Source: Pseudomonadota bacterium (lineage in GTDB: Bacteria; Pseudomonadota; Gammaproteobacteria; Burkholderiales; Gallionellaceae). Taken from it: a stretch of DNA of 64,000 nt. The first letter of the stretch is position 1, and each line of letters starts with the position of its first letter. The notes below the pieces were generated by a model that was not told where the DNA came from, searched no databases, and saw nothing but the letters and a program-made list of their open reading frames with translations. The stretch lies in the NCBI GenBank assembly GCA_021821945.1, contig JAJZTF010000003.1, positions 67,615-131,614 of the forward strand. The letters are read 5' to 3'. This document shows, in pieces, positions 2,682-62,652 of the stretch. Made by a program: the position numbers and the translations under genes.

Positions 2682-2840
2682 CATGATGCGCAGCCGCATT
2701 GTAGTGTGGGTTTTGATGACGGTCAACGAAAGCAGTCACGGTGTTCTTGGAATCAAACGGTCGGGCGCGATGCACCCGCTTTCGTATAGAATCCCATCCG
2801 TTGCATGGGTCGGCGGTGGCATCAGGACCCTTTCCCCATC

Positions 2841-2856
2841 CGGCATGGGCATTGCT
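2841..2856 (+). promoter_or_regulatory. Candidate sigma-54 (RpoN) -24/-12 promoter for the sugar transferase-prsK-prsR operon
   Basis: cGGCATG-GGCA-TTGCT matches TGGCACG-N4-TTGCW with the correct GG-N10-GC spacing. It lies 68 nt upstream of the ATG at 2924. The operon encodes a sigma-54 activator carrying GAFTGA. Confidence 0.55.
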
Positions 2857-2923
2857 TTATAATCCCGTGGCAGGATCAAAAATAAAAAGCGCAGTTTGAG
2901 CGGAAGCGAGGATGGTGCACTAA

Positions 2924-4318: not shown

Positions 4319-4324
4319 TCCGCG

Positions 4325-6334: not shown

Positions 6335-6358
6335 CCCATTCGGCTGCGCGGAGAGATC

Positions 6359-10960: not shown

Positions 10961-10990
10961 CGCAAGCCAATAACAGGAGCTTCCCGCCAC

Positions 10991-18433: not shown

Positions 18434-18507
18434 GCGGGTGTAGCTCAATGGTAGAGCAGAGGCTTCCCAAGCCTACGACGACGGTTCGATCCCGTTCACC
18501 CGCTCCA
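18434..18507 (+). tRNA. tRNA-Gly (anticodon CCC)
   Basis: Cloverleaf folded by hand. The acceptor stem is GCGGGTG/CACCCGC, the D-arm GCTC-AATGGTA-GAGC, the anticodon loop TTCCCAA and the T-arm GACGG-TTCGATC-CCGTT. The 3' CCA is encoded. Confidence 0.9.
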
Positions 18508-38085: not shown

Positions 38086-38195
38086 GCTCAGGGCATGCCA
38101 GCGATTCAGGATGCGCGCTGGTATGGAAATGGGGGGCTCCACAGTGGATTCACACCGGCCCGCATCATACTGAACAAGCGCGCTCTTGCAAACAG

Positions 38196-47784: not shown

Positions 47785-48369
47785 TCAGTCGAGATCGTCC
47801 TCCAGCGAGTCGCGCACTTCCTTCTGCAGCACAGTCTGCGCCTGATAGTGGGGATGGTCTATGCCGGCGCTTATCGCCGCACCCTGTTTGACGGCATTGA
47901 TCATTCCGGGCGTGAGCTCGAATCGCAAGAAGTGCACCGCCGAGGTCTTGCCCTCCGTCTCTCTGTCCATGTCCTCGTTCGCGATCGCATACACCCGCCC
48001 GTATTCTCCGATCTCCATCCAGACCTTCTTCTCGATCCCCGCAAGGCGCAGCAGTTCTTGGCGTCTTTCTTCGGGATCCTCGTATTCGATCATGAAGGTC
48101 GCCTTCCAGTTGGTGCCGTCGGGGATCAGCGGGTTGTAGACCTCGAGCTCCTGTTCTATGCCGCCTGCATCGAAGATGCGCTCAAGCCGGAGCATTTCCT
48201 GGACCTGATACTGCATGGTCAGGCTGTCCTCGAAATGCAGCGTTGCGTGTTCTCCGAGCCCGACTCTGCGGCTTTCCTTGTGCTCGATCACGGTCATGCG
48301 GAATTCCGGCCGGATGCGCGAGTACTGTTCCAGGCTGAAAAGTGTTTCCCTCTTCAATGGCATGTTCAT
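47785..48369 (-). CDS. DUF3501-family protein
   Basis: Internal Met of ORF 47785-48669 (MNMPLKRETLFSLEQY...). It forms an ATGA-type overlap with the upstream Fe-S gene. Confidence 0.6.
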   Translation of the reverse strand: MNMPLKRETLFSLEQYSRIRPEFRMTVIEHKESRRVGLGEHATLHFEDSLTMQYQVQEMLRLERIFDAGGIEQELEVYNPLIPDGTNWKATFMIEYEDPEERRQELLRLAGIEKKVWMEIGEYGRVYAIANEDMDRETEGKTSAVHFLRFELTPGMINAVKQGAAISAGIDHPHYQAQTVLQKEVRDSLEDDLD

Positions 48370-49694
48370 ATTCCGTAGGCCTTTCTCAATAGGGTGATGG
48401 GATGCTCTGGCGCTCTTCCATCCTTGAGTGCGTTTTCGATATGGTGGCCCGCCATCGCACAGTCGCTGCCGAAGTGCTGTGCATCGGCATTCTTCACGCG
48501 ATCCGCCACGGGCCTCACGATCCTCATCGCATGCTCGTGAAACTCCTTCTTCACCGCATAGGTACCGTCGTGTCCGGAACAGCGTTCTATGATCTCGACC
48601 GTGGTCGCGGGAACGAGTGACAGTGCCTCGCGCGTCTTCTGTCCGATGTTCTGCACGCGCTGGTGGCATGCCGCATGGTAGGCGATGTTCCCAAGAGGCT
48701 GCTTGAAGTCGGTCTTGAGGAGGCCCTCCCTGTGGCGCAGCATCAGATACTCGAAGGGATCGAAGAAGGCCTCCTTCACCTTCCGCACGTCGGGATCGTC
48801 CGGATACATCAGCGGGAGCTCCTGCTTGAACATCAGCACGCAGGAAGGAACCAGCGCGGTCAGGTCCCAGCCCTCATCGACGAGCCTTGAGAGCAGCGGG
48901 ATGTTGTGCTCCTTGGCCCTGGCCACCGATTCGAGGTCTCCGAGTTCCAGCTTGGGCATGCCGCAGCAGCGTTCCTTTCCGGCAAGCCTGACTGGAATGC
49001 CGTTGTGCTCGAACACTTCGACAAGATCGAGGCCGGGCCCAGGCTCGTTGCGGTTCATGTAGCAGGTTGCGAAGAGCGCGATCCTTCCCCTGGTCCTGCC
49101 GGCGGAGACTGCCATGTTCTCGCTTCTGTGGGATGACAGGCGGCTCTGCAGGGACCTGCTGTGATATTCCGGAACCCATGCCTCCGCGTGTACCCCCGCG
49201 ACGGTTTCCAGCGCCTTGCGCGCCCAGCCCATCTTGTTTGCCGCATTGACTGCCTGGGCCACGACGGGGATGCCCGCGATGCTGCCCACTGCATCGGTGC
49301 TGGTCAGCATCCTGTCCCTGAGCCTGACTTTCCCGCTTCTGAATTTCACGGCCTTGGCCCTCAGCATCAGATGGGGGAAGTCCACATTCCACGCATGGGG
49401 AGGAACATAGGGACATTTGGTCATGTAGCAGAGATCGCAGAGATAGCAGTGATCCACGACCTTGATGTAGTCCGACTTTGCGACTCCGTCCACTTCCATC
49501 GTCGAGGATTCGTCCACGAGGTCGAAAAGCGTCGGAAACGACTGGCAAAGGCTCACGCAGCGGCGGCAGCCGTGACAGATTTCGAAGACGCGTTCCAGTT
49601 CCCTGTCGAGCGATTCCCCGTCGTAGAAGTCGGGGCTCTTCCAGTCCAGCGCATGACGAGTGGGCGCCTCAAGATTGCCTTCGCGAGCAGCCAT
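48366..49694 (-). CDS. Heterodisulfide-reductase-related (HdrD/GlpC-like) Fe-S protein with two 4Fe-4S motifs and CCG domains
   Basis: Internal Met of ORF 48366-49940 (MAAREGNLEAP). Motifs seen: CHGCRRCVSLC, CYLCDLCYMTKCP, and the CCG motif in KERCCGMP. Confidence 0.75.
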   Translation of the reverse strand: MAAREGNLEAPTRHALDWKSPDFYDGESLDRELERVFEICHGCRRCVSLCQSFPTLFDLVDESSTMEVDGVAKSDYIKVVDHCYLCDLCYMTKCPYVPPHAWNVDFPHLMLRAKAVKFRSGKVRLRDRMLTSTDAVGSIAGIPVVAQAVNAANKMGWARKALETVAGVHAEAWVPEYHSRSLQSRLSSHRSENMAVSAGRTRGRIALFATCYMNRNEPGPGLDLVEVFEHNGIPVRLAGKERCCGMPKLELGDLESVARAKEHNIPLLSRLVDEGWDLTALVPSCVLMFKQELPLMYPDDPDVRKVKEAFFDPFEYLMLRHREGLLKTDFKQPLGNIAYHAACHQRVQNIGQKTREALSLVPATTVEIIERCSGHDGTYAVKKEFHEHAMRIVRPVADRVKNADAQHFGSDCAMAGHHIENALKDGRAPEHPITLLRKAYGI

Positions 49695-49714
49695 GGCATC
49701 TTCCCTGTCAGGGT

Positions 49715-50134
49715 TCAGGACTTGAATTCGTTGAGCGCCTTCTGGTAACGGTTCGCGTGGGAACGCTCGGCCTTCGCGAGCGTCTCGAACCAGTCTGCCA
49801 CCTCGCTGAAACCCTCCTCGCGCGCGGTCTTGGCCATGCCGGGATACATGTCGGTATATTCGTGCGTCTCGCCTGCGACGGCGCTCTTGAGGTTGTCTTC
49901 GGTGCTTCCGAACGGCAGGCCTGTCGCGGGGTCTCCGCACTGCTCGAGATATTCCAGGTGGCCATGCGCATGGCCCGTCTCGCCTTCCGCAGTGGATCTG
50001 AAGAGTGCCGAGACATCGTTGTAGCCTTCGATGTCAGCCTTGGCCGCAAAATAGAGGTAGCGGCGGTTGGCCATGGATTCGCCGGCGAAGGCGTCTTTCA
50101 GGGATTGCTCGGTCTTGCTTCCTTTCAGTTTCAT
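49715..50134 (-). CDS. Rubrerythrin-family diiron protein (no rubredoxin domain)
   Basis: 139 aa with a ferritin-like fold. ExxH pairs are seen in [11 protein letters not shown]...[10 protein letters not shown]...ETHEY...AERSHANRY. Confidence 0.8.
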
Positions 50135-50284: not shown

Positions 50285-50536
50285 TCAGACCGATCCGATC
50301 AGCGCGAGCTTTTCGGCACGCGTGAGCTTCTTGATTTCCATCTCGCGCCTCAAAGCGGAAGAACGGTCTGCACAATATTCATGGAACACCAGCGCAACCG
50401 GTCTGCGCGCGCGGGTGTACTTCGCCCCTGTTCCTTCGTTGTGCGCATGGAGGCGTTTTTCGATGTCGGTGGTGATGCCGCAGTACAGCGTGCCGTCGGC
50501 GCATTGCAGCATGTAGCACAGCCAGTCAGAGGACAT
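50285..50536 (-). CDS. GIY-YIG nuclease-domain protein (UPF0213)
   Basis: 83 aa containing CYMLQCADGTLYCGITTDIEKRLHAHN. Confidence 0.8.
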   Translation of the reverse strand: MSSDWLCYMLQCADGTLYCGITTDIEKRLHAHNEGTGAKYTRARRPVALVFHEYCADRSSALRREMEIKKLTRAEKLALIGSV

Positions 50537-50607: not shown

Positions 50608-51300
50608 TTACAGCGCCTTACAGATCGTGACCAGCGACGTGCCGGTGTCGGTATAGCTGCCGCTCATCGCCGCGGTCTGTATGGGGTCTGGTGATGCCGT
50701 GAGCTGGGCGCGTATGCTGCCGGTGTTGGGTATGCCATCGTCGAGTTGCCGGTCGACCGCTGCGGCCACCCTGTCGGAAAGCCCTGAAGAGCAGATCATG
50801 AAGCCCGTGAATCCGGTGCCTGCGCCGTTGCTTTGCAGCACTTCACCCGGGGGGATCGCGCCGTTTCCGGTCTGTACGCCCAGGATGCCGCCTGCCGCAT
50901 TGAGCGGCTGCAATGCGGAAGCGGCAGAACCCGTCACGAGGCCTGCTGCCCTGAGATGCATCCAGAAATATTGCGATTCGATGGCGGCAGCACCCGTCGC
51001 ATTGTATGCCCCAGAGATGGTGCCATCGCTGTTGCCGCTCGCATTTGCCGGCAATGCAGGCCATCGCGCATTCGCCTGGCTGTCGTCGCCTGGCAGCGCC
51101 TTGTAGCGGTCGAGATAGGCATAATAGGCGGCGGTGATGCCGGAGAGATCGTTGATCGCGGACTTGATCCTGCCCTGCGTGATCATCTCCTGTCCCTTGA
51201 ATACGCCACCCAGAAGAAGGCCGATGATCACCAGCACGATCGCGATCTCGACCAGCGTGAAGCCCCGGTTTCCAGGCCTTGCGGTCAGATCTTCATGCAT
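50608..51300 (-). CDS. Prepilin-type (type IV pilin-like) protein, copy 1
   Basis: Leader MHEDLTARPGNRG, then FTLVEIAIVLVIIGLLLGG (class III signal with Glu+5). It has a C-terminal Cys pair. Confidence 0.8.
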   Translation of the reverse strand: MHEDLTARPGNRGFTLVEIAIVLVIIGLLLGGVFKGQEMITQGRIKSAINDLSGITAAYYAYLDRYKALPGDDSQANARWPALPANASGNSDGTISGAYNATGAAAIESQYFWMHLRAAGLVTGSAASALQPLNAAGGILGVQTGNGAIPPGEVLQSNGAGTGFTGFMICSSGLSDRVAAAVDRQLDDGIPNTGSIRAQLTASPDPIQTAAMSGSYTDTGTSLVTICKAL

Positions 51301-51959
51301 AGCGTGTGCAGCTCGTCAGGAGAGGCCGGGGCCGCAGCACCCTTGCCGTAGACCAGCGAGGCAGCGGTCGCAGTCGCATCGTTGGGCGTGGTGCTCGCTG
51401 CCCCCGTCCTGACATTGCCCGTGTCGCTGTTCCCGTCATCTATCATGAGATCGACCGCCTGGGCGATCTTCCAGGGTATGCTGCCAGCGCACACCACCGG
51501 TCCCGTCATGCCGTATATCGCGGCGGCACTCCCGTCCTGAACGCCCAGAAGCCCTCCCATCGCATTGGTGCCGGCAGGCGCAGTGTTGCCGGTCGCGGGG
51601 CCAGACAGGAAACCTGCCATGCGCGCATGCTGCCAGAACGCCTGGCTTTCCGTGCTGATGGTCGCATTGTTGTCGGTATATGCGCCGCTGATGATGCCGT
51701 CCCCGTTTCCATCATAGGCGGCCTGACCGAGATGGCTGGCGGCTGCGCTGTCGTCTCCGGGTATCGCCTTGTAGCGGTCCTGGTAGGAATAGTACGCCGC
51801 GGACACGCCCTTAAGGTCGTTGACGAGATTCTTGGCCTTGGCGTTCTGTATCATCTCCTGTCCCTTGAAGACGGCGGCAAGCAGCAGCCCGATGATGACC
51901 AGCACGATGGCGAGTTCGACCAGCGTGAAACCGGATGGTGAATTCCTGACAGTCCGCAT
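51285..51959 (-). CDS. Prepilin-type (type IV pilin-like) protein, copy 2
   Basis: Internal Met of ORF 51285-52190, preceded by AAGGAGA. Leader MRTVRNSPSG, then FTLVELAIVLVIIGLLLAA. It is a paralogue of copy 1. Confidence 0.8.
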   Translation of the reverse strand: MRTVRNSPSGFTLVELAIVLVIIGLLLAAVFKGQEMIQNAKAKNLVNDLKGVSAAYYSYQDRYKAIPGDDSAAASHLGQAAYDGNGDGIISGAYTDNNATISTESQAFWQHARMAGFLSGPATGNTAPAGTNAMGGLLGVQDGSAAAIYGMTGPVVCAGSIPWKIAQAVDLMIDDGNSDTGNVRTGAASTTPNDATATAASLVYGKGAAAPASPDELHTLCMKI

Positions 51960-52030
51960 GTCATTCTCCTTGTCGTTTGATGGTTGAAGGACTGTATGAT
52001 TTGAAGGGCCTGGAGAGAAGTAAAAAGGTT

Positions 52031-52648
52031 TTACACCGATTGCGAACGGCTCGGGCGTATGCCGTATTTTTTCAGGTAGTAGTAGAGGTTCTCCCGCACA
52101 AGTCCCAGGCGCCTCGCGGTTTCCGATACATTGCCGTTCGTGCCGGAAAGCGTGTTGCGGATGATCAGTTCCTCGACCGCCTCCGCGCATTCGCGCGGCC
52201 CGTCGGATATCTTTATCGTGACGTGCAGCCTGGCCTCACCCGATTCGGAAAGCCTTGCTTCATGGTGCAGAAAAAGGGAGGCGCGCCTGGTCGCGGACTT
52301 GATGTCGCCGAGGTCAGAAGGCTTGGTCAGGAAATCGAATGCGCCCCGGCGCACGGCCTCGAATGCCGCGTCTTCATGGCCGGTTATTGCGATGATCTTG
52401 CTTCCCGGGGAATCCGCCAGCAGGGCGTCTATCAGAAAGAGCCCTTCGCTGATTTCATGCCTCGCCGGTGGCAGGCCCATGTCCAGCAGCACGATCATAG
52501 GTTGATGATGGCATGCCAGCGCCTCGGTCCGGTTATGCGCGCTGTGCACCCGATAGCCTTCGATCGCCATGACCTGCGAGAGATGGCTGCAAACCGGCTC
52601 GTCGTCCTCGACGATGAGCAGCTCGCGATGGGGCATGGAATCCTTCAT
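52031..52648 (-). CDS. Response regulator: REC plus Fis-type HTH (ActR/RegA-like architecture, no AAA+ domain)
   Basis: 205 aa. REC motifs seen: IVEDDE, LLDMGLPP, ITGHED and LTKP. The C-terminal NGNVSETARRLGLVRENLYYYLKKYG is an HTH_8. Confidence 0.75.
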   Translation of the reverse strand: MKDSMPHRELLIVEDDEPVCSHLSQVMAIEGYRVHSAHNRTEALACHHQPMIVLLDMGLPPARHEISEGLFLIDALLADSPGSKIIAITGHEDAAFEAVRRGAFDFLTKPSDLGDIKSATRRASLFLHHEARLSESGEARLHVTIKISDGPRECAEAVEELIIRNTLSGTNGNVSETARRLGLVRENLYYYLKKYGIRPSRSQSV

Positions 52649-53382
52649 GGCAGCCTTCCTGCCTGAACCAGGCGGTTGAAAAGCGCATACTGGGAAAGCC
52701 AGATGACCTGATCGTCGAAGTAGCCGCCGGCGGCTCCCGGCGGGGAGGCTGTATGGCTCACGAAATTGACGGTGATGTCGGCATTGGCCAGTTCATTGGC
52801 GCCATTCGGCATGGGGTTGGGAAGTCCTGCCGAGTTGATCGCACTCATGCCGTTTTTGCCGTGAGAGAGTATTATGGCCGGGACATTCAGCGCGATGCTG
52901 TTCCCGCCAGATGCGGCATCCAGTATGTTGATGTCACCCATATAGGAGAGCTGCATGCCTGCATTGCGGTTGGAGAAGTTGCCGCTTACCCGGTAGCGCA
53001 GGCGGTTGGCCCATGCGTCGGACTGCGGTGTCAGCCCCAGCGTGACCCAGGGCAGATTGCCTTCCTGCGTGTCGCAGGCGCCGGTAGCGGCATTGCGGTC
53101 TTCCTGCCCGTCGTTGGCGACATTGCCAGCCGAAACCGAAGCTCCCGGCCTTGCGTCGGGGCAGGGCAGGTAAGGGCGCCCGTCGCCCGTCGCCGCATGG
53201 GAGAGCGCATAGCCTAGCACCATCTCGCGCGCATCGATCAGCCTGTCGTGCGTGTCTTCGACATGGCGCTGTTCGAGTTCGCTGGAAAGCAGGCTGAGTC
53301 CGGTTCCCAGGAGGAGCGCCAGCATGAACAGCGCGATGGCCATCTCGATCAGGGTGAATCCGCTGTCAGGCAGTATCTTCAT
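52645..53382 (-). CDS. Minor pseudopilin-like protein with prepilin N-terminus and a YLPCPD module
   Basis: Internal Met of ORF 52645-53442 (MKILPDSG then FTLIEMAIALFML). It forms ATGA overlaps on both sides. Confidence 0.7.
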   Translation of the reverse strand: MKILPDSGFTLIEMAIALFMLALLLGTGLSLLSSELEQRHVEDTHDRLIDAREMVLGYALSHAATGDGRPYLPCPDARPGASVSAGNVANDGQEDRNAATGACDTQEGNLPWVTLGLTPQSDAWANRLRYRVSGNFSNRNAGMQLSYMGDINILDAASGGNSIALNVPAIILSHGKNGMSAINSAGLPNPMPNGANELANADITVNFVSHTASPPGAAGGYFDDQVIWLSQYALFNRLVQAGRLP

Positions 53383-54821
53383 GGGCAGGCAGGGGTGGCC
53401 GCGGGGTTTCCCCTGACCACGGTCAGATCTTCTCTTATGCAATAAAGGATGTCGTTGAAAGTGCTGCTTTCGACATCCGACTGATAATTCTCGGTTCCGG
53501 ATGCGGAAGGATTTGCGATGTTGAGCGCATTGCTTCCCTCGAGATAATTCGAGACGATGCCGCGCTCAGGATCGGTCGGGCTGCTCGCGCGGATCTGTCC
53601 GGAAAGCTTCCGGTTCGCGAAGACGATCACTGCGGCATACTTGCCGGCATGGTTCACGGAGAGGCAATTCCCGCAGGGAGGCGTCGAACGGTTCGCAGGC
53701 CTGTATTCCTGGGAGAGGGCATAGAAGAGATGGTCCTTCCAGTTGTTCCACCAGGGGTAGTAAAGATAGGCCCAGCCGGAAGGGTCGGGGCAGTTGTTGG
53801 TGCAGATGCCGGCATTGCATGTGCCGCTCGTGAGCAGGAAATCGCTGGCGATCACATTGCCGGATGCGGTTCTGGAAGTGTTGACCCTGTATGGCGTGCG
53901 CCCGGAAAACAGATTGGCCGAGTCGTCGTAGTTCGCGTTTTCCGAATAGTCTGCCAGTGAAATGGGGGCGGGCCATGGAAGGCTCATGTTGGATGGATCG
54001 GGGACTCCGTCGATCGAATTCTTCGTGCCGTAGCCTGCGATGCATTCGGCAGTCTTCTTCGTCATCGCATCCAGGGTCGCAAGAAAATTCCTGCGTCTTT
54101 CGAGCGCATTCCATATATCCCGTTTCGTGATGAAGACCAGCCTGTCGCCGGTCAGGGTATGGTCCCCGATGCGGAAATCGCTGGTCGCGCCGGCAACGTT
54201 CGATACGGTCGCATTGTTGTATCCGGATGATGCATCGAGATAATTGCTGGCCGTGTAATTGCCCCCGCATATGGGAGCCGATGTGCCCGAGCGGTTCTGT
54301 CCTGGCAGCGCCATGCCGGGGGAAAATATCACCGCCACTGCCTGATTGTCCGCGGGCGTGAGCAGGACCCCGTCGGTATCGTATACCCTGATCTGCCCGT
54401 TGGTGTCCCAGTTCAACAATCCCGTCTTTGGGTTGTTCTTGTAGTTGCCCGAGACCGCATACCAGAGGCATTCCCCGTCGCTTCCGCGCAGCGGGCCGAT
54501 GTCCAGCGTGCGCCAGGGTAGTCTTCCGAGCTGGCTGACATCCTGGCTGCCGCAGGTCGGTTCTGCGCTGCCTTCCGGATTGCCGCCGGCCTGATCCGGG
54601 CATGGAAGATATCCGTGAACCTGACCTGCATGGGTATCACCATAGGTGATCGCATAGCCGATCAGCGCATCCTTGGCTTCCGCAAGCGCGTCATTCGTGA
54701 TGCTTTCCCTCATGGGCCTTCCGTCTTTCAGACCGCTTACAAAAACCATTGCAACCGCGCCCGTCAGCAGGGTGACGAATACCAGAAGGGCGATGCCATT
54801 TTGTCTCTTCTGCATCTTCAT
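53379..54821 (-). CDS. Large PilX_N-like (non-cleavable hydrophobic N-terminus) filament-associated protein with a YLPCPD module
   Basis: 480 aa. The N-terminus is MKMQKRQNGIALLVFVTLLTGAVAMVF. It shares about 120 aa of similarity with the 52645 ORF and is Cys-rich. Confidence 0.55.
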   Translation of the reverse strand: MKMQKRQNGIALLVFVTLLTGAVAMVFVSGLKDGRPMRESITNDALAEAKDALIGYAITYGDTHAGQVHGYLPCPDQAGGNPEGSAEPTCGSQDVSQLGRLPWRTLDIGPLRGSDGECLWYAVSGNYKNNPKTGLLNWDTNGQIRVYDTDGVLLTPADNQAVAVIFSPGMALPGQNRSGTSAPICGGNYTASNYLDASSGYNNATVSNVAGATSDFRIGDHTLTGDRLVFITKRDIWNALERRRNFLATLDAMTKKTAECIAGYGTKNSIDGVPDPSNMSLPWPAPISLADYSENANYDDSANLFSGRTPYRVNTSRTASGNVIASDFLLTSGTCNAGICTNNCPDPSGWAYLYYPWWNNWKDHLFYALSQEYRPANRSTPPCGNCLSVNHAGKYAAVIVFANRKLSGQIRASSPTDPERGIVSNYLEGSNALNIANPSASGTENYQSDVESSTFNDILYCIREDLTVVRGNPAATPACP

Positions 54822-55129
54822 GGTCTGTTCCGGGATTCTGGTTTGCCTTTAGGGACCTCCTTCGATTCCCCGGGCCTGATGATCACGCCATTCAGCAATA
54901 TGTGATCGCTGTAGATGCCAAGCGCGGGGAAGTCGGGATCATTGTCAAAAACCGCACGGCCGTTGATCCAGGCGACGCTTCTCCCTGCGCTGCGCTTGAC
55001 GATGCCTTCCAGCCTGTAGACTTCCACCGCCCTGCCTTGCAGCCTGCGTTCGGCAGGAGAATAGAACAACGTCCCCAGCGCGTGGGCCAGCGCCGGAATC
55101 ATGAGGCAGAGCAGCATCGCGTATCTCAT
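54818..55129 (-). CDS. Small periplasmic protein, PilP/MshK-like by position
   Basis: Internal Met of ORF 54818-55165 (MRYAMLLCLMIPALAHA signal peptide). It forms ATGA overlaps on both sides. Confidence 0.45.
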   Translation of the reverse strand: MRYAMLLCLMIPALAHALGTLFYSPAERRLQGRAVEVYRLEGIVKRSAGRSVAWINGRAVFDNDPDFPALGIYSDHILLNGVIIRPGESKEVPKGKPESRNRP

Positions 55130-55689
55130 GTCCTGCCCTGCATCGAGTAGAGCTGCAGGGTGCATCTGATCTCCAGATCCGTTTCCTGTTCCCGGACAAT
55201 CTGGCAGCCTTCAACGAGGTAGGGGATTTGCCAGTCAGCGGACAGCCTTTCCATGAAGTCCAGGAATTCCAGATCGTCCATTCCCGAAATTTCCATCGTC
55301 AGTTCATGGTAGAGGATGCGATGATTCCCCGGCCTTTCATCGACCGGTCGCCCGGGCAGCAGGGTGTATCTCAGGTTTGCCGGAAGACCGGTTTTTCGAT
55401 AGATGTCTTCGAGGCGCTGCATCCATTCGTTCCTGTCCGGCTCGCCCAGAAATCTCCTGAGCATCAGGTATCGCCCGTCCGGTTTTTCTGCAGCCTCGAG
55501 ATCCAGCCTGCTTCTTTGGTTTTCGGCGCGCATGGCAGAAAGGCGGCTTTCCATCTTCCGTATCTGGGCCATTCTTCTTTCGTGGTGGCCGTGCAGGATG
55601 AAGACGAAAAGGCAGGATGCGGCGATGGATGCGGCAAGCGCAATCAGCGCGGATTTCGATGCTTTCACAAGCTCAATGAGATCGTTCAT
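55126..55689 (-). CDS. PilO/MshJ-like bitopic alignment-complex protein
   Basis: Internal Met of ORF 55126-55734 (MNDLIELVK). It has one TM segment, a coiled coil and a C-terminal domain. Confidence 0.45.
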   Translation of the reverse strand: MNDLIELVKASKSALIALAASIAASCLFVFILHGHHERRMAQIRKMESRLSAMRAENQRSRLDLEAAEKPDGRYLMLRRFLGEPDRNEWMQRLEDIYRKTGLPANLRYTLLPGRPVDERPGNHRILYHELTMEISGMDDLEFLDFMERLSADWQIPYLVEGCQIVREQETDLEIRCTLQLYSMQGRT

Positions 55690-57032
55690 GGCCTGCTCGT
55701 CCGCAATGCGGCCCATGGAATGATCATGCACCACGGATCAGTGGTGCTGGCGGAACGGTATCCGTCCTGGATTGCACGCGTATGCGAGGCGGGGTCCTCG
55801 ATCAGGCGCAGAGACGGGTTCTGTCTGATGTTGTATGAAATGCGCTTCTGGATCTCGGCGATTCTTGAGGCCGGCGGCCTGTCCGTCAGCAGGATGGAAA
55901 ATTGCAATCCCAGTTGGCGTCCGTCTGCAGGCGGCAACGACTTCCCGCAATAGCCTTCGTTGGGCTTCAGAAGCTTGTAACTCAGGCTCCTTATGCGAAC
56001 CTCCCGCATGCCCGCGATGCAGCCTGCGACGAGATTGAAGACGGCGTCTATCGCGGGAGCGGCGTCGAATCCGGATGATGCGAATTCCTTGATTTCGCGT
56101 ATCAGCGCCGGGTCCGCGCCATTTTTTTCGATGCGTCTTGCAAGCTCTCCTTGCCTCGATGCTTCCTGCTGCACTTCCTTCTGCAGCAGGTTTTCCCTGG
56201 CAGCCATGCCGGACAGGTCGCGCATGTCGCGCTGCGAGACAAGGAGCACGGCCATGAGGCAGGTGCCGGCAGAAATGACGGCGGCCCTTTTAATCCGCAT
56301 GCCCACGTATCTGCTGCGGAATTTCATGGGGGCAAGCTGCCCCATGCTGGACGAGGAAGCCGTCTCGAACAGCGCGTGCAGATAGGATGCGTCGCCTTTT
56401 GGTTTCATCGCATCCGGCAGGGGCAGGACATCCGCCATTCCTTCCGGATCGCCAAGATACAAGACGGGGGGTGCCGGCTCCTGCCCAAAGGTCTGATGAT
56501 TCTCGAGATGCAGCAGGGTGAGCCGGATCTCCTCGGCGGGGCTTCCGTTGTAGCGATGTATGCAGCGGGTGACGACGGGTGTGCCGTGCCTGATGACCAG
56601 GATGCGCAGATGTTGGCGGCCTGGGTAAACGAGCATGACGTTTTCCATGCGTTGTCTTCGCATGGCGGCAGCCAGCAGCATGAACATGCCCCATACGCCA
56701 GCGACAGGATTTGCCAGCCTTTCGAGTTCGCTGCCGATCGCATCGTCTGTGTCGAATCCGGTCAGCAGCGCGGTCTTGCCGAACAAGCCGTCTGGAACGG
56801 CAGCCCGGAAGCGGCTGTTCGGAAATGCCTGATTCAGCCTTCGCCGCATGAGGTGAGCCCTGTCCGGACCAAAAGATACCGGAAGGGCTATGCTTTGGAG
56901 GGATTCCTCGGGAAGATCGGCGATGACCAGGAGGATTTCGCGTTCATCCGGCTTTCCGGCTTCTTGCCACTGGCCGCGTTGTCGCCTGAAATACCGGATG
57001 CCGGAAGAGTCGATGAGCAGAATGGTCTTCAT
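55686..57032 (-). CDS. PilM-PilN fusion-like (MshI-like) assembly protein
   Basis: 448 aa. A cytoplasmic N-domain (MKTILLIDSSGIRYF) is followed by a TM segment near residue 260, a coiled coil and a periplasmic domain. Confidence 0.45.
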   Translation of the reverse strand: MKTILLIDSSGIRYFRRQRGQWQEAGKPDEREILLVIADLPEESLQSIALPVSFGPDRAHLMRRRLNQAFPNSRFRAAVPDGLFGKTALLTGFDTDDAIGSELERLANPVAGVWGMFMLLAAAMRRQRMENVMLVYPGRQHLRILVIRHGTPVVTRCIHRYNGSPAEEIRLTLLHLENHQTFGQEPAPPVLYLGDPEGMADVLPLPDAMKPKGDASYLHALFETASSSSMGQLAPMKFRSRYVGMRIKRAAVISAGTCLMAVLLVSQRDMRDLSGMAARENLLQKEVQQEASRQGELARRIEKNGADPALIREIKEFASSGFDAAPAIDAVFNLVAGCIAGMREVRIRSLSYKLLKPNEGYCGKSLPPADGRQLGLQFSILLTDRPPASRIAEIQKRISYNIRQNPSLRLIEDPASHTRAIQDGYRSASTTDPWCMIIPWAALRTSRP

Positions 57033-58225
57033 GTCAGTCTGATCCTCGATACCGTGTCGTAAATCGGGCCCAGCACCGCCGTCATGATCCAGCCCAGCAG
57101 AATGCCGAGCACCACGGTGAGTGCAGGCTCTATCAGGGATTGCATGCGGGCGATGGAATCGTTGATGTCCCGGTTGTAGAAATAGGAGATGTTCTTGAGC
57201 GCCCCTGAGAGATCCCCCGTCTCCTCTCCGGTCTTGATCATGCGTATGATCAGCGCGGGAAAAAGCTTCTGCTCGGCGAATCCGCGACTGATGGGCGCCC
57301 CGTTGGCGATCGCGGTCCTGGCATGATCTATGGCCTCCTTAATGATCAGATTGCCGGTGACGTCGCTGCAGTAGACCAGACCGTCGAGCAGGGGTATGCC
57401 TGTCTTGTAGGTGAGCCCCAGCGTGTCTCCTGCCCGTGCGAGCATGATCTTCTTGATGATGGGGCCGATGAAGGGAAGGCCGAGCAGGGCTGCATGCACC
57501 ATGCGCCTTGCTCGCTGATTGCTCCTTGCAAGCAGGGAAAGCAGGATGAGCATGGCAGCAGCGGTCGGCAGGATGAACCAGACATATCTTGCGAACGCGC
57601 CGGATATCGAGATCAGCAGCCTCGTCTGCAGCGGGATGGCTCCTCCCATGTTCTCGACGAAGCCTACAATCTGCGGGACGAGATAGGTCATCAGGAATAT
57701 CACGACGATGCTCACCACGAGCGTGACAAATGCCGGATAAATAAGGAGCTGGCGGGTCCTGGCCAGAAGCTCGTCCTGCCATTTCAGAGATCTGACGATT
57801 TCCGCCAGCACGTCGGGCAGCTGGCCTGTCGCTTCTCCCGCTTTCACGAGATTGATCACCAGTTCCGGAAAGGCGCCCGGGTTGGCCGCGAGCGCTTCTG
57901 AAAGCGTCGATCCGGAATCGATCTTCTCGTGAAGGCTTGCGCAAAGATTCCGTATCCTGGCGGTCTCCGTGGTGTCGCGCAGATCGGCCAGTATGGAAAG
58001 TATCGGCACGCCCGCCCTCAGCAGCATCTCGAGTTCGAAAAGCAGTTCTATCAGCTCGCGGCGCGCAATTCTGTGCAGGGTGCTGCGCTTGGTTTCCTGC
58101 GAGCGTATCAGTTCAAGGTTTATCTTCCCGAGCTGGGCGGCGAGATCCTGTTCGTTGAGCGCATTGCTCTCCCCTTTGGATATTTTTCCAGAGGCATCGA
58201 TTGCGCGATAGCGGTAGAGAGGCAT
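57029..58225 (-). CDS. Type II secretion / type IV pilus platform protein (GspF/PilC/MshG family)
   Basis: 398 aa with duplicated T2SSF domains and three TM segments. Confidence 0.85.
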   Translation of the reverse strand: MPLYRYRAIDASGKISKGESNALNEQDLAAQLGKINLELIRSQETKRSTLHRIARRELIELLFELEMLLRAGVPILSILADLRDTTETARIRNLCASLHEKIDSGSTLSEALAANPGAFPELVINLVKAGEATGQLPDVLAEIVRSLKWQDELLARTRQLLIYPAFVTLVVSIVVIFLMTYLVPQIVGFVENMGGAIPLQTRLLISISGAFARYVWFILPTAAAMLILLSLLARSNQRARRMVHAALLGLPFIGPIIKKIMLARAGDTLGLTYKTGIPLLDGLVYCSDVTGNLIIKEAIDHARTAIANGAPISRGFAEQKLFPALIIRMIKTGEETGDLSGALKNISYFYNRDINDSIARMQSLIEPALTVVLGILLGWIMTAVLGPIYDTVSRIRLT

Positions 58226-59931
58226 TATTCCGCCAGCCTTTCGCTGAAATCGACCACGCGCCTGACCTCGTCAAGCGAGGTGATGCCTTCCTTCACCCGC
58301 CGCATGCCGTCGTCGCAGAGCGGAATGAACTGGTGGGCCAGCGCGTATTCGGTGAGCTCCTTGAGGCCGGCGCGTCTTGCGACAAGCTCGGTCAGTCCCT
58401 GGTCAAAGCGCAGGATCTCCATGATCGCAAGCCTGCCCTTGTATCCCTGATGGTCGCATTTTGCACAGCCTCCCGGGCGAAATAGCGTGACATCCCCTCC
58501 CCTGAGCCTGCGCTCTGTCCCGTCAGGTTCGTGGATTTTCTTGCAAAGCGGACAGAGTTTGCGCACCAGCCGCTGTGCGATGATGCCGATCAGGTTGTCT
58601 GCAAACATGCTCTCCAGCATGCCAAGATCATGAAGCCTCGCGATCGACCCCAGCGCCGAGTTGGTGTGCAGCGTGGAAAAGACCTGATGACCGGTCATGG
58701 CCGCGCGCAGCGCCATCTCGGCCGTGTCGCGGTCGCGGATTTCTCCGACCAGTATGATGTCGGGATCCTGGCGCATCAGCGACCTTATCCCGCTGGAAAA
58801 ATCCAGCTTCACGATCTCGGCAATCGAAGTCTGTCTCGCAAGCGGCAGCGGGTATTCGACGGGATCCTCGAGCGTCATGATGTTCACGGTGTCTTTGTTG
58901 AGGAAATTGAGTATCGAATAGAGCGTGGTGGTCTTCCCGGATCCCGTGGGGCCTGTCACCAGCAATATGCCTTCCGGCCTTTGCAGCATGCGCTCGAGCA
59001 GGGAAAGCTGCATGGGAGTCATTCCCAGCTTGTCCAGATTCACGATGCCTGCCTTGCGGTCCAGTATGCGAAGCACGAAATTCTCACCGTGCATGGTGGG
59101 GTGGGAAGCTGCGCGAAAATCGATCTGGCGGCCGAACAGTGAAATGGAAAACCGCCCGTCCTGGGGCGCGCGCGTCTCGGCGATGTTCATGCCGGACAGC
59201 ACCTTCAGGCGCACCAGAAGGGCCGCCCAGTTGGATTTTGCAAGAGACCTCACGGGTCGCAATACGCCGTCTATGCGGTAGCGCACGCGCAGGAACTGCT
59301 CTTCTGGCTCGAAGTGGATGTCGGATGAGCCGCTGCTCACTGCGTCCGAGAGCAGCGCATCGGTAAGCCTCACGATGGGGTGGCTGTATGAGGCGCCTGT
59401 CTGGGTCAGCGCATTGAAATCGAATTCCCCGTTCTCGAGTTCGGAGAGTATCCCTTCTATGGAGAGCTCGTGGTCATAAAACCTGTCTATCGCCGCCAGC
59501 ACCTCTGCGCTGGGCGAGATGCGCCATTCGCAGCCTATGCGCTGCCCTGCAACCCCGCTTGCCTCAGCAAGAAAGGCGGAGGCGGCATCCCGGGTCCGGA
59601 TGTCGTCCGGATTTGCCGCGGCGATCACGAGATTTCCGCTCGCCGCATCGAAACTGACCGGGAAGATGGCATGGCGGATCGCGACTGGCTTCGGGATCAG
59701 AGACAGTGCGGTCGCATCTGCCACGAATCCCGAGAGATCCACGGCCTTGTACCCCGCCGCTTGGGACACCGCCTCGCGCATGGCCTGTTCGGTGATGAAA
59801 TGCAGGGCAAGCAATTCTTCACCCAGGGGCCTCCCGTCTTCCTTCTGCCGCTTGAGTGCGATGTGCAGCTGATCGTCGGTGATCTGACCGCGCGCCTTCA
59901 GCACTTCTCCGATGCGCGGGCGAGGGTTCAT
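58225..59931 (-). CDS. GspE/PilB/MshE-family assembly ATPase with an MshEN-type N-terminal domain
   Basis: 568 aa. It has Walker A GPTGSGKTTT, Asp and His boxes, a tetracysteine motif (CPLC...CAKC) and the N-terminal RIGEVLKARGQITDDQLHIALKRQ. Confidence 0.9.
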   Translation of the reverse strand: MNPRPRIGEVLKARGQITDDQLHIALKRQKEDGRPLGEELLALHFITEQAMREAVSQAAGYKAVDLSGFVADATALSLIPKPVAIRHAIFPVSFDAASGNLVIAAANPDDIRTRDAASAFLAEASGVAGQRIGCEWRISPSAEVLAAIDRFYDHELSIEGILSELENGEFDFNALTQTGASYSHPIVRLTDALLSDAVSSGSSDIHFEPEEQFLRVRYRIDGVLRPVRSLAKSNWAALLVRLKVLSGMNIAETRAPQDGRFSISLFGRQIDFRAASHPTMHGENFVLRILDRKAGIVNLDKLGMTPMQLSLLERMLQRPEGILLVTGPTGSGKTTTLYSILNFLNKDTVNIMTLEDPVEYPLPLARQTSIAEIVKLDFSSGIRSLMRQDPDIILVGEIRDRDTAEMALRAAMTGHQVFSTLHTNSALGSIARLHDLGMLESMFADNLIGIIAQRLVRKLCPLCKKIHEPDGTERRLRGGDVTLFRPGGCAKCDHQGYKGRLAIMEILRFDQGLTELVARRAGLKELTEYALAHQFIPLCDDGMRRVKEGITSLDEVRRVVDFSERLAE

Positions 59932-60614
59932 CGCTTCGCTTCCCCGGATCCGTTTATCTCCCTTATCCGCCGCCTGACCGGATGGGGATCGAAAAGCCCG
60001 GGGGCCTGCATGGACAGGCTGAGCGATTTCTCGTAATAGGGGAGGGCTTCATCTGGCCTGTGCAGGCGGTCCAGCGATACGGCGAGGTTGTATGCATAAA
60101 GCGCATTGTCCGGTGCAAGCGTGTGGGCGATGAGGTAGGCATGTTCCGCTTCCCCCATGCGAAATTCAAATGCCAATGCATTTCCCAGGGCATATTGCAG
60201 TTCGGGTGATGAAGGCTGGATGTCGAGCAGCTCCTTCAATTCGCTTTCCGCGCCTGCCGGGTCTGCGGGAATGGAAAGGCCGATGAGGCCCGCGGCGGCC
60301 GCCGCATTCCCCATGTCCTCGTTCAATACCTGTCTGTAGTACCTCGCAGCCTGGTCTGGCTGATGCTTGCGCTGGGAGATCACGGCCAGCCCCAGGAGCG
60401 CGTCGATTTCGTGGGGGCGCTCCTTCAGGACCTGTCTGTATTCGGTCTCGGCTGCATCCAGCATTCCGCCTGAAAGGTCGCGGTAGGCTGCCAGGAGTTT
60501 CTGCGCCCCATTCATGGGAGGGCTGCCGGGCGGATGCCAGCCGCTTGCGGCTGCGCCTTGCTGCAGACAGCACGCCAGGAAAACAAGGAAACTGGCTCTT
60601 GCAGGCAAGCTCAT
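59928..60614 (-). CDS. TPR lipoprotein (PilF/PilW/MshN-like pilotin candidate)
   Basis: 228 aa. It has a signal peptide with the FLAC lipobox and several TPR repeats. Confidence 0.6.
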   Translation of the reverse strand: MSLPARASFLVFLACCLQQGAAASGWHPPGSPPMNGAQKLLAAYRDLSGGMLDAAETEYRQVLKERPHEIDALLGLAVISQRKHQPDQAARYYRQVLNEDMGNAAAAAGLIGLSIPADPAGAESELKELLDIQPSSPELQYALGNALAFEFRMGEAEHAYLIAHTLAPDNALYAYNLAVSLDRLHRPDEALPYYEKSLSLSMQAPGLFDPHPVRRRIREINGSGEAKR

Positions 60615-62377
60615 TGCATTTCCCCGCTGCCTTCCCGCCTGTCTTCGACCACGTTCCTGAAATTCCTGACCAGTTCATACTGGCTGTCCTGGTTGAGTAT
60701 CAGCGGGCGCAGGAATATGACCAGTTCGGTCTTGCGATTCGTGTCGTTGCGTGCCCTGAACAATTCGCCGGCTCCTGGAATCCTGCTGATGCCGGGTATC
60801 TGCCCGGTGTTGCCTGTGCTTGTGTCCTGCATCAGGCCGCCCAGCACCGCGATGTCTCCGTCGTGAACGGACAGGATGGATTCCATTTCCCGCGTCTGTA
60901 TCTCGGGGATGAGATTGGAGACGGACAGGGAGGGATTGACGGGGTTGATGAGCGCGGGATTGGGATCCGGCACATAGCCCAGGATGCGCGTGATCGTGGG
61001 CCTCAGGTTGAGCGTGACTTCCTGATCCTTCCCCACTTCAGGCGTGACATACATCATGAAACCGATGGGAACCGTGTGTATCGTCGAAGTGTAGGTGGGC
61101 GAGGTGAGCAGGGCGCCCGCCGTGCTGTAGGAACCCTGGGTGACATCGATCGTGAAGTAGACCAGTTCGTCCACCACCTTGAGCAGGCTGGTCTGATTGT
61201 TGAGCACGGAAAGCGTGGGGCTGGAAAGCACATGGGTCTTCCCGAAGTTTTCCAGCAGCTGTATCGAGCCATTGAGGCTGAAGCTTCCCGGCTTTCCCGG
61301 GTTCGCATAGCTGATGGTGCCGAGCGCGGTGACCGGGGACGATGGCGGCGGGACTGTGGATGTCTGCTGCAGGCTAAGACCCAGGGCACGCAGGAGGGAC
61401 CAGTTGATGCCCTGCTGGTACTGGTCGGACAATTCGACTTCGACGATGGTCGCTTCGATGAAAACCTGGCGGCGCGCATTGCCCATCACCTTGTCGATGA
61501 ACCTGCGAACGGCCCTGTGCTGGCGCGAAGTGGCGCGCACGCTGATGATGCCGGCCTCGGGATTGGCAATGACCGAAGCAGCCTCGCGGTAGGTCACGCG
61601 GCGGTCGCGCCTGGTGTTCTGGCTCTGGATCTGTGCGGGCGGAGGGGTGGCCGACTTCTTCCTTGGCTCCGCGCCCAGCTGGGTGATCTGCTGCTGGTTG
61701 CTCTGTTCCGAGACGGTCTCGCTCGATCCTTCCGGAAGCTTCTTGTCGGTCTCCCTCAAAAGGTCCTTGATGTTCTCGGTCAGCGTTTTCCAGAAGTCGT
61801 TGTTCGACAGGTTCGCGATTGCGGAATTCGCGCCGTTGCTGCCGGCTGCAGCGCCTTCGCTCTTGCCTATCACCGCGATGTTGGTGGACATGTTGATGTT
61901 GTTTCTGGCATCCCTGGATACGTTGGGATATTCGATCTGGTAGGCCTTGAGGTAGGGAGTGTCCGGCATGATAGAAAGATTCCTGCCGTTGAACTCGTAG
62001 CGCATGTCCACCTGCCGGGAAATCGCATCGAGTATTTCGGGCAGCGTGCAGTCGACCATGTTCATCGTCACGGTCCCGGTGATGCCAGGATGGATCTCTA
62101 TGTTGAGTTTCGCATCACGGGCCAGTGCAAAAAGCATCTCCTGTGCGGGCACGCTGTTCACGACCACGTTGTAGCGCTCGGCATTCGGCCTTGCGGAAGG
62201 GGGAGGAGGAAGCGGGGGCACGCCTGCAAGGGGCGGGATGTCTGGTGATGATGGTGCCGCATCCGGTGTTATGTGCTGCGCGGAAACGGGGATGGGTTCT
62301 GGAAGATCCGTGCAGCCGGCGAGGGCCAGGCATGGCAAGGCGGCACAGAGCCAGTTTCTTTCAAAGAACATGATCAC
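60611..62377 (-). CDS. Secretin (MshL/PilQ/GspD family), lipoprotein type
   Basis: 588 aa. It has the lipobox LALAGC, a Pro-rich linker and the C-terminal secretin core (GGLMQDT...IPGISRIPGAGELFR...ELVIFLRP). Confidence 0.85.
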   Translation of the reverse strand: MIMFFERNWLCAALPCLALAGCTDLPEPIPVSAQHITPDAAPSSPDIPPLAGVPPLPPPPSARPNAERYNVVVNSVPAQEMLFALARDAKLNIEIHPGITGTVTMNMVDCTLPEILDAISRQVDMRYEFNGRNLSIMPDTPYLKAYQIEYPNVSRDARNNINMSTNIAVIGKSEGAAAGSNGANSAIANLSNNDFWKTLTENIKDLLRETDKKLPEGSSETVSEQSNQQQITQLGAEPRKKSATPPPAQIQSQNTRRDRRVTYREAASVIANPEAGIISVRATSRQHRAVRRFIDKVMGNARRQVFIEATIVEVELSDQYQQGINWSLLRALGLSLQQTSTVPPPSSPVTALGTISYANPGKPGSFSLNGSIQLLENFGKTHVLSSPTLSVLNNQTSLLKVVDELVYFTIDVTQGSYSTAGALLTSPTYTSTIHTVPIGFMMYVTPEVGKDQEVTLNLRPTITRILGYVPDPNPALINPVNPSLSVSNLIPEIQTREMESILSVHDGDIAVLGGLMQDTSTGNTGQIPGISRIPGAGELFRARNDTNRKTELVIFLRPLILNQDSQYELVRNFRNVVEDRREGSGEMQ

Positions 62378-62652
62378 TCCCTCTGCAAACGTGCAGATTC
62401 CAAAGTTTATGAAATTGGGGTATTGCCGGAAGTGCGAGCCTGCGATGATGACGCGGGCTTTCTGATGGAGCTCATGGATTCAGTTTTTCATTTTGGACTT
62501 TCAGGGTCAATATGCCGGAATGCATAGGCAATCGGTCTGGCTGCAATTGAAAGCGGCGAGGGTTCGTGGTAGCTTAGCCGGGCGTTGACTGTGAACTTTT
62601 GTGGTGCGGCTGCGTCTATTCCGTCGCAGTCCGTCAAGTGAGGAATACTTAA

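Follow-up and report, generated by a model that had tools for sequence, protein, structure and literature searches.

The DNA analyzed here is a 64,000-nt stretch of contig JAJZTF010000003.1 from a Gallionellaceae bacterium; we refer to this whole stretch as the window. Between positions 62377 and 50608 it carries 12 co-directional minus-strand open reading frames (ORFs) whose products resemble the MSHA pilus machinery of Vibrio cholerae. We consider it likely that they encode a complete, functional MSH-class (MSHA-like) type IV pilus machine belonging to a conserved beta-/gammaproteobacterial subfamily. An ORF check of the window found all 12 in frame with one terminal stop each. An earlier note, made from the sequence alone, had described these ORFs and their overlaps, and all were recovered where it had placed them, with intact reading frames. 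The genes and associated features, in the direction of transcription, are as follows.

62505..62517, minus: CGGCATATTGACC, promoter-like motif with a −35-like TTGACC, some 130 nt 5′ of the secretin start
60611..62377, minus: outer-membrane lipoprotein secretin, MshL-like; PF00263, 112.6 bits; canonical lipobox LAGC (L-A-G-C)
59928..60614, minus: TPR protein, 228 aa, MshN position; multiple TPR Pfam matches
58225..59931, minus: extension ATPase, MshE-like, with N-terminal MshEN domain (c-di-GMP-binding type); PF00437, 422.6 bits
57029..58225, minus: inner-membrane platform protein, MshG/GspF/PilC family; PF00482 T2SSF, two stretches, 159.5 bits
55686..57032, minus: g5, fused alignment protein, MshI position; AlphaFold2 (AF2) model with predicted local distance difference test (pLDDT) score 82.6, compared with the PDB by Foldseek
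55126..55689, minus: g6, bitopic protein, 187 aa, PilO/GspM/MshJ position; N-terminal transmembrane (TM) helix, coiled coil, C-terminal domain
54818..55129, minus: g7, small secreted or periplasmic protein, 103 aa, MshK/PilP position; signal peptide, family alignment
53379..54821, minus: g8, 480-aa pilin-like protein, PilX/GspK/MshP type; N-terminus QNG/IALLV without Glu5
52645..53382, minus: g9, minor pilin, 245 aa, prepilin motif G/FTLIE; PF07963 N_methyl, 23 bits; TIGR02532
52031..52648, minus: response regulator, REC plus Fis-type HTH_8, PrsR-like paralogue; PF00072, 58.4 bits; PF02954, 34.2 bits
52020..52034, minus: 15-bp palindrome GTAAAACCTTTTTAC, half-sites GTAAAA / TTTTAC, candidate operator; overlaps the regulator stop codon, 61 nt upstream of the pilin 1 start
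51991..51996, minus: −10-like hexamer TACAGT (family TAnAnT), at a fixed distance from the palindrome, 23 nt downstream in the window
51285..51959, minus: pilin 1, 224 aa, leader MRTVRNSPSG/FTLVE, C-terminal Cys pair; PF07963, 30.3 bits; TIGR02532, 26 bits
50608..51300, minus: pilin 2, 230 aa, leader MHEDLTARPGNRG/FTLVE; PF07963, 31.2 bits

The genes are tightly packed. Eight junctions share a 4-nt ATGA overlap (secretin/TPR, TPR/ATPase, platform/g5, g5/g6, g6/g7, g7/g8, g8/g9, and g9/regulator), ATPase and platform overlap by 1 nt at 58225, and the two pilin genes overlap by 16 nt at 51285–51300. The sole intergenic gap, at 51960–52030, was measured by script as 71 nt, correcting the 72 nt reported before. 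For the secretin, the ATG at 62371 (586 aa) is a likelier start than the GTG at 62377, because a GAGGGAG ribosome-binding site (RBS) lies 6 nt upstream and the 586-aa form was called independently in metagenome contigs. The longest ORFs of g6, g7, g9, and pilin 1 open further upstream than the overlapping ATGs; homologue N-termini match the overlapping-ATG starts, which the earlier note had used. One gene caller favored a 196-aa g6 with a 31-nt overlap.

Relatives were surveyed with one genome per species. Relatives of g8 occur in 462 species; 80 loci were fetched in addition to that of the cultured Gallionella capsiferriformans ES-2, and gene order in all of them was read with iterative local hidden Markov models (HMMs), one set per gene. 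Fetched loci are cited below by their L numbers where they must be told apart.

Envelope machine and class assignment

Profile searches of each ORF, which the earlier note had proposed, matched Secretin, MshEN and T2SSE, T2SSF, N_methyl (three genes), and REC plus HTH_8. They agree with its identification of an MSHA-like type IV filament cluster: MshL is the top secretin model, the ATPase carries MshEN, and the platform is a T2SSF protein. Against family models the secretin scored 243.8 bits for MshL (TIGR02519; cut-off 250.2), 150 bits for GspD, and 99 bits for PilQ, a lead of more than 90 bits for MshL over either. Homologues at 64–84% identity are named MshL by JGI and NCBI; others are named GspD. 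A search of plasmids with the secretin returned only a distant Legionella MshL and matches to GspD.

The TPR gene lies between secretin and ATPase in most loci covering that stretch. Its product has an N-terminal hydrophobic segment and a noncanonical lipobox (F-L-A-C), and profile searches gave weak matches to PrsT, Tgl, and PilW. At 228 aa it is shortened relative to the 306–361 aa of its relatives. It is ~110 residues shorter than the protein of ES-2 (L087, 3538–4554) and of most relatives, the region N-terminal to the TPR repeats having been lost.

The N-domain of the ATPase matches PF05157 MshEN (43.8 bits; cut-off 23.1) and the c-di-GMP motif model NF053729 (54.5 bits; cut-off 38), although MshEN also occurs beyond MSH systems and the match is not exclusive to them. 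Residues 4–152 align with V. cholerae MshEN (5HTL), with motif I intact. In V. cholerae, MshE is a c-di-GMP receptor (PMC4624765, PMC7096442, PMC9815625). Two large GGDEF-EAL proteins of c-di-GMP turnover, one of which has PAS domains, are encoded elsewhere in the window (25964–28381 and 35197–38199, both minus strand) and could feed into the MshEN-bearing ATPase. Scores were set aside as an uninformative basis for classing the ATPase itself, since GspE, PilB, and the Legionella MSH ATPase all fall at ~350–470 bits. The platform protein scored 290.6 bits against GspF, under the cut-off of 424, and its PF00482 match is to a generic family that is not MSH-specific.

Between platform and pilin-like genes stand three proteins in the positions of the alignment complex. 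In the AF2 model of g5, an actin-like PilM/GspL-fold domain on the cytoplasmic side leads into a TM helix, after which come a long coiled coil and an alpha/beta domain in the periplasm; in the PDB, Foldseek matched the model to PilM (3jc8, 5eou), the EpsL/GspL cytoplasmic domains (1yf5, 4pht), and FtsA (E ~3e-7). Because a PilM/GspL fold is followed by TM helix, coiled coil, and periplasmic domain, g5 is a PilM-PilN/GspL-type fusion, as the earlier note had read it. The g6 family is kept between g5 and g7 in most loci covering that stretch. A family alignment of g7 shows the motifs LGxLF(F/Y)(T/S)PxxR (here LGRLFFTPEQR) and G..xWING. By size, topology, and placement, g6 and g7 would correspond to MshJ/PilO and MshK/PilP.

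A different machine with many of the same parts is the T2SS (type II secretion system), in which a short periplasmic pseudopilus would push folded proteins, such as outer-membrane or extracellular redox- or exopolysaccharide-related ones, through the secretin instead of a surface pilus being formed. The cluster shares with T2SS (GspC-O) an ATPase, platform, and secretin core, a GspL-like fused alignment protein with a GspM-like partner, and a large GspK-like minor (pseudo)pilin without Glu5. The EpsL/GspL cytoplasmic domains are among the best structural matches of g5, with the highest target TM-scores; the best NCBIfam matches of the pilins are weak, N-terminal ones to GspG and GspH; ATPase and platform score against GspE and GspF as well as against pilus models; and a canonical T2SS is missing in ES-2 (PMC3770913). 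The T2SS equivalogs nevertheless fall far under their cut-offs (GspD 150 of 351 bits, GspG 28.7 of 88.9, GspE 473 of 630, GspF 291 of 424), GspC and the GspH-I-J set are absent from the cluster, and the secretin is an MshL-like lipoprotein. The pilins, at 224–230 aa and disulfide-bearing, are too long: Canonical GspG is far shorter (the NCBIfam model has 134 positions). A C-terminal Cys pair is a pilin-like rather than a pseudopilin-like feature. The ExeA/MshM and TPR pairing found in relatives is likewise an MSH arrangement. We therefore regard a secretion device as unlikely.

A divergent type IVa pilus serving twitching motility or DNA uptake, rather than an MSHA-type adhesin, would account for other features. 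MSH systems derive from type IVa pili (PMC6668835), the PilB model spans the whole ATPase, N-domain included, at 473 bits, PilM is a fold match of g5, and the pilins combine short T4a-like leaders with a Cys pair. Here too the scores stay below cut-off (PilQ 99 against 284 bits, PilB 473 against 676); single-locus organization, a fused PilM-N, and, in relatives, an ExeA-like ATPase are MSH/T2SS traits; and the cluster has no retraction ATPase (no PilT). The cultured relatives Sideroxydans lithotrophicus ES-1 and G. capsiferriformans ES-2 already encode a canonical type IVa pilus set elsewhere, besides the cluster (pilMNOPQ, pilVWXY, pilT, pilU; PMC3770913). The type IVa alternative accordingly seems improbable to us.

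The MSH-class assignment refers to the classification of Denise et al. (2019). Of five genes treated there as mandatory (mshA, E, G, L, and M), the MSH model asks for only three (PMC6668835); the window has candidates for four. Several observations weigh against the assignment. No component exceeds an MSH-specific trusted cut-off (MshL falls 6 bits short), GspE and PilB models score the ATPase equally at 473 bits each, and its identity to the ATPase of the annotated Legionella MSH locus is only 38%. MshEN motif II departs from the consensus at three key positions (P for R, H for G, A for Q), and because of these differences c-di-GMP binding by the N-domain is probable rather than certain. No sequence similarity of g6 or g7 to MshJ or MshK was detected. 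When g5, g6, and g7 profiles were compared by hhalign with the Legionella MSH-locus proteins in the I, PilN, J, and K positions, the alignments were not significant; g7 gave a weak match to the MshK-position protein over a 19-column xxING motif (E = 0.004, probability 8%). The same family-alignment profiles against PDB sequences returned noise only, as did Pfam and NCBIfam searches with the ES-2 orthologues of g5–g8 at E ≤ 1, and g5–g8 themselves had no Pfam or NCBIfam match at E ≤ 0.01. The globular domain of g8 found no match in the PDB by Foldseek (best E 2.9). Finally, the family is known from its genes alone.

Conservation of the layout and the absent parts

The survey of relatives, which the earlier note had also proposed, recovered one order throughout. 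Across the loci the genes run (M)-secretin-TPR-ATPase-platform-g5-g6-g7-g8-g9, where M is an ExeA/MshM-like AAA_22 ATPase, save for occasional genes undetected by the local HMMs. A Gallionellaceae subclade continues with the response regulator, a 364-aa kinase, and two pilin genes, and ES-2 is arranged exactly so. Because it is conserved across 80 loci and in cultured ES-2, the gene order is not idiosyncratic. The rearrangement pointed out by the earlier note is real when set against Vibrio, but it is the fixed layout of a large beta-/gammaproteobacterial family. Relatives of g8 occur in Gallionellaceae, Sterolibacterium, Rhodocyclaceae, Sulfuricellaceae, Burkholderiales metagenome-assembled genomes (MAGs), Chromatiaceae, and other Gammaproteobacteria, and nearly every named homologue of g8, g5, or the secretin belongs to Gallionella, Ferrigenium, Sideroxydans, or Gallionellaceae. 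A role specific to iron oxidation (stalk or conductive pilus) was set aside, since the family is also found in Sterolibacterium, Rhodocyclaceae, Sulfuricellaceae, and Chromatiaceae MAGs.

The family has been noticed before and is uncharacterized. In ES-1 and ES-2, Emerson et al. (2013) described MSH-homologous clusters that show "a significant gene rearrangement" in comparison with Vibrio and P. tunicata, and gave their function as unknown (PMC3770913), and a 2023 study noted an MSHA cluster in Gallionellaceae MAGs. The clusters of ES-1 and ES-2 belong to the same family, with the same order. In ES-2 (CP002159.1, 2.49–2.51 Mb; L087) secretin, TPR, ATPase, platform, g5 to g9, regulator, and two pilin genes follow one another, and the palindrome of the window recurs 5′ of both pilins. 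Unlike the window, ES-2 has an ExeA/MshM-like AAA ATPase 5′ of the secretin, a 364-aa PrsK-like histidine kinase between regulator and pilins, a longer TPR protein, and two separate pilin genes.

The best-studied counterpart, MSHA of V. cholerae (mshHIJKLMNEGF / mshBACDOPQ), is alike in being a single locus with an MshL-like lipoprotein secretin, a TPR protein beside the ATPase, an MshEN-bearing extension ATPase, a platform, an I-J-K-like trio, and pilin genes downstream in a unit that is probably separate here too. It differs in order, which here is L-N-E-G-I-J-K followed by g8, g9, regulator, and pilins; the canonical I-J-K-L-M-N-E-G-F / B-A-C-D-O-P-Q arrangement is not found, whereas an annotated Legionella locus (L089) keeps the Vibrio-type I-J-K-L-M-N-E. 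Other differences lie in content: The window has no MshM, MshF, or MshQ; the MshI-position protein is a single PilM-PilN fusion; the minor pilin set is down to two paralogues, g8 and g9, neither of them detectably similar to MshO, MshP, or MshD; the pilins, of ~220 aa, are duplicated; and a response regulator is embedded, with a candidate operator at the pilin promoter.

Four absent parts had been listed as departures from known systems. None of the 12 contiguous genes matches a peptidase A24 model in Pfam or NCBIfam, so the absence of a prepilin peptidase stands for the cluster; it is not anomalous, being a trait of all MSH loci, each a single locus without that gene (PMC6668835). The retraction ATPase is likewise missing from the cluster and likewise unremarkable: The V. 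cholerae MSHA locus also lacks both genes (PMC6668835, PMC7096442), and retraction there uses PilT acting in trans, encoded outside the MSHA locus (PMC7096442, PMC9815625). No ~1200-aa MshQ-like protein is present in the cluster. The MshM/ExeA-type ATPase is truly absent here, from the cluster and its flanks, yet this is no anomaly of the family: In 35 of the 48 loci with room to show it, the gene (AAA_22, 89.4 bits in ES-2) lies directly 5′ of the secretin. The window and its three nearest MAG relatives (L007, L008, L015) have neither M nor the kinase, and the MshM-like ATPase appears to have been lost or moved in this sub-lineage. What had been taken for anomalies comes down to traits of the family or to ones already known from MSH loci, and nothing is overturned.

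All 12 genes are under purifying selection, with dN/dS of 0.04–0.42 against their L007 and L015 orthologues. Pilins are the most constrained (0.04–0.10 for pilin 1, ~0.10 for pilin 2) and g5–g7 the least; by identity, too, the pilins lead the cluster in conservation (90–96%), and g5–g7 evolve fastest (48–74%). Exposed major pilins usually show the opposite pattern of conservation. An identical g8 protein (P0001) occurs on 17 metagenome contigs from several samples, and the six loci fetched from these carry the cluster at 98–100% identity.

These data bear on whether the locus is a remnant, silent or in decay. Compared with ES-2 and many further loci it has lost M and the 364-aa kinase, its TPR protein is shortened, and one variant (L005) has pilin 1 split into 150 + 74 aa. 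Set against this, 12 of 12 ORFs are intact, the dN/dS range comes from two relatives with the same reduced layout, identical or near-identical copies recur across samples, and RBS, promoter-like motifs, and candidate operator are all conserved. We judge decay very improbable and a functional MSH-class pilus the better account.

Pilins, regulator, and palindrome

The motif-based assignments made earlier for this end of the cluster—a PilX_N-like 480-aa protein, a pseudopilin, a REC-HTH regulator, and two pilins—proved essentially right. Pilins 1 and 2 are paralogues (48% identity, E 2e-55) that carry N_methyl and Glu5; their similarity to solved MshA is weak and N-terminal (9lab, 12.9 bits). In one metagenome copy (L005, 7236–7909; Logan SRR33270678), pilin 1 was called as two ORFs of 150 and 74 aa. 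The gene is intact in other copies, and the split could reflect a frameshift, a sequencing error, or genuine variation.

The large pilin-like protein g8 combines a 60-residue N-terminal helix with a Cys-rich globular domain in which nine Cys are invariant across a 26-sequence alignment. Its AF2 model has pLDDT 75 and a predicted TM-score (pTM) of 0.75, with pLDDT of 80–97 in the C-terminal half. An exhaustive profile search placed 1,358 clusters (50% identity) in the g8 family at E ≤ 1e-30. Some members are long (P0208, P0216, P0239, and P0262; 767–1132 aa) and their extra sequence is likewise unannotated; Pfam searches of eight longer relatives (651–1132 aa) found no adhesin or other domain. 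A tblastn search of PLSDB plasmids with g8 gave no match. The N-domains of g8 and g9 are paralogous (YLPCPD ... LPW.TLG; 31% identity over 116 alignment columns, E = 4e-11, BLASTP).

MshQ has been proposed as an analogue of PilY1 that docks on MshD, MshO, and MshP, and systems without a tip adhesin often have a large insertion in a PilK-type pilin. By analogy, g8 may be such a large-insertion pilin and is a candidate tip or initiation subunit. Because its globular domain has no structural relative, what points to the tip role is the N-terminal features and the gene position.

The gene following g9 encodes a response regulator whose REC and HTH_8 domains are not accompanied by a sigma-54 AAA+ module. 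Its top REC model is PrsR (TIGR02915), at 97.8 bits over REC only against a cut-off of 502.6, hence below the PrsR threshold, and its REC is 40% identical to that of the window's own PrsR (E 1e-20). The architecture is that of NF033791 (ActR/PrrA/RegA, ~180 aa), to which it aligns over its full length at 66.7 bits, under the cut-off of 250. In relatives the regulator gene is followed by a 364-aa kinase that matches the PrsK core including the H-box. Because the REC is closest to PrsR and the kinase core to PrsK, the embedded two-component system is a truncated PrsK/PrsR paralogue. In the window only its regulator is retained, as an orphan, the adjoining kinase gene being absent. A regulator within the operon, earlier counted as an anomaly, is in fact conserved in the Gallionellaceae subclade, usually together with the histidine kinase as its partner.

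The full-length PrsK and PrsR of the window lie in an XrtA/PEP-CTERM exopolysaccharide locus at 361–12556. This locus encodes a chain-length determinant (TIGR03007, 617 bits), an export protein (TIGR03027), and a priming glycosyltransferase (TIGR03013), together with true PrsK (4325–6334, 862 bits), true PrsR (6359–7711, 737 bits), and an exosortase-A-associated acyl-CoA ligase (TIGR03098, 810 bits). The GGDEF-EAL proteins and this locus are consistent with a lifestyle of surface attachment and matrix, and prove nothing.

At the 3′ end of the regulator gene, ahead of the pilin pair, stands the 15-bp palindrome. It is unique in the window, with 0.00 occurrences expected by chance. Of 14 loci that carry the regulator, 13 have it 5′ of the first pilin gene, and the remaining one, L026, ends before its pilin genes. 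In five loci with separated pilins (L013, L021, L028, L086, L087) it recurs 5′ of the second. Across all loci (1.36 Mb searched), the regulator-less ones do not have it upstream of their pilins; they contain only three unrelated matches. A 13-locus alignment shows the T, A, and T columns of the TAnAnT hexamer to be invariant, as is the GGAGAA RBS; downstream of the hexamer comes a 5′ leader and then the invariant RBS AAGGAGAA. If the hexamer acts as a promoter element, as its conservation suggests, the start site it sets would put the palindrome center at about −45, an activator-like position.

Conservation of the palindrome only with the regulator, together with the promoter-like hexamer, leads us to view the pilin pair as a separately promoted, regulated unit; on sequence grounds it is probably a transcription unit of its own. 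The cluster regulator is the likely binder of the palindrome as a candidate operator and probably switches on the pilin genes. One consideration cuts the other way: The association comes from a single clade and may reflect common descent rather than binding. The earlier picture of a single translationally coupled 12-gene operon is unlikely, given that a conserved promoter-like region and a candidate operator precede the pilin pair itself. For the ten genes upstream, the CGGCATATTGACC motif is a candidate promoter of an assembly operon: It is unique in the window (0 expected by chance) and is found at the same position 5′ of the secretin in L007, L008, L011, L013, and L015. A generic sigma-70 and terminator scan found sites no more often than in shuffled controls. 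Sigma-54 promoters were considered and rejected; no −24/−12 element lies 5′ of the pilins, and a TGG...TTGCA 5′ of the secretin has the wrong spacing.

Two known systems offer comparisons. As with PilS-PilR, which controls pilA of type IVa pili, the embedded two-component system is encoded beside the major pilin gene, to which it is apparently dedicated, and PrsK-PrsR of XrtA/PEP-CTERM loci has the closest REC domain and kinase core. The cluster regulator differs from both in having no sigma-54 AAA+ module, only REC and HTH_8 as in ActR/PrrA/RegA; in having no −24/−12 promoter in sight upstream of the pilins; and in that its kinase is missing from the window.

Proposed working, significance, and surroundings

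We propose that the locus works as two units. In the first, of ten tightly coupled genes, the MshL-like lipoprotein secretin, its TPR partner, the extension ATPase, and the platform would build the envelope machine, with the MshEN domain probably making assembly c-di-GMP-dependent. The g5 fusion together with g6 and g7 would link the inner-membrane motor to the secretin, and g8 and g9 would probably initiate the filament and occupy its tip, standing in for MshO, MshP, and MshQ. The last gene of this unit would supply the PrsR-derived REC-HTH_8 response regulator. The second unit would consist of the two paralogous pilin genes under their own promoter, with the upstream 15-bp palindrome as the likely regulator site. 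Pilin supply would then be set by a phosphorylation signal, which in relatives would come from the adjacent PrsK-like kinase and here from a kinase encoded elsewhere, possibly the PrsK of the PEP-CTERM locus in the window. Prepilin cleavage and any retraction would be provided by the cell's type IVa pilus genes, as for Vibrio MSHA. The pilus would likely serve in surface attachment, aggregation, or biofilm initiation.

A further-reaching version, which we put forward as speculative and rather unlikely, is that the paralogous g8/g9, one of them with a Cys-rich domain of ~400 residues whose fold is absent from the PDB, form a previously unrecognized tip/initiation module that replaces the MshD/O/P/Q or PilVWXY1 complex in a large MSH-like clade and brings a new binding specificity, for example for mineral or polymer surfaces, while the embedded two-component system couples pilin production to the PEP-CTERM exopolysaccharide program at GTAAAA-N3-TTTTAC. 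If so, the module could confer new binding specificity in the habitats of iron and sulfur oxidizers, and pilus and matrix would be deployed together.

Work on MSHA-type pili has been confined almost wholly to Vibrio and a few further Gammaproteobacteria. The present locus stands for a large conserved branch, with at least 462 species genomes, in Gallionellaceae and other environmental Beta- and Gammaproteobacteria that colonize mineral and root surfaces. Five of its 12 proteins (g5–g9) have no Pfam or NCBIfam family model beyond the prepilin N-terminal motif of g9, and one has no structural relative. New here are the PrsR-derived regulator with its pilin-promoter palindrome and the g8/g9 module without family or structural match beyond that g9 motif. 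The dedicated pairing of regulator and candidate operator offers a testable handle on the timing of pilus production.

The cluster is flanked on one side by genes for a Gly-zipper lipoprotein and a monomeric isocitrate dehydrogenase (IDH), and on the other by a small GIY-YIG ORF, rubrerythrin, a CCG Fe-S oxidoreductase, and DUF3501. An Rfam scan of the whole window found a single tRNA (18434–18504, plus strand) and no riboswitch near the cluster. In ES-2, an IS200-like Y1 transposase gene directly follows the second pilin gene (L087, 15818–16555). In the window, the GIY-YIG ORF (83 aa; 50285–50536, minus strand) lies between the last pilin and rubrerythrin, a position kept in metagenome copies. 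The trio of rubrerythrin, GlpC-like CCG/4Fe-4S oxidoreductase, and DUF3501 directly downstream of the cluster occupies 47785–50134 (minus strand), and beyond it lie a divergent TRAP transporter (DctPQM) and then glyQS.

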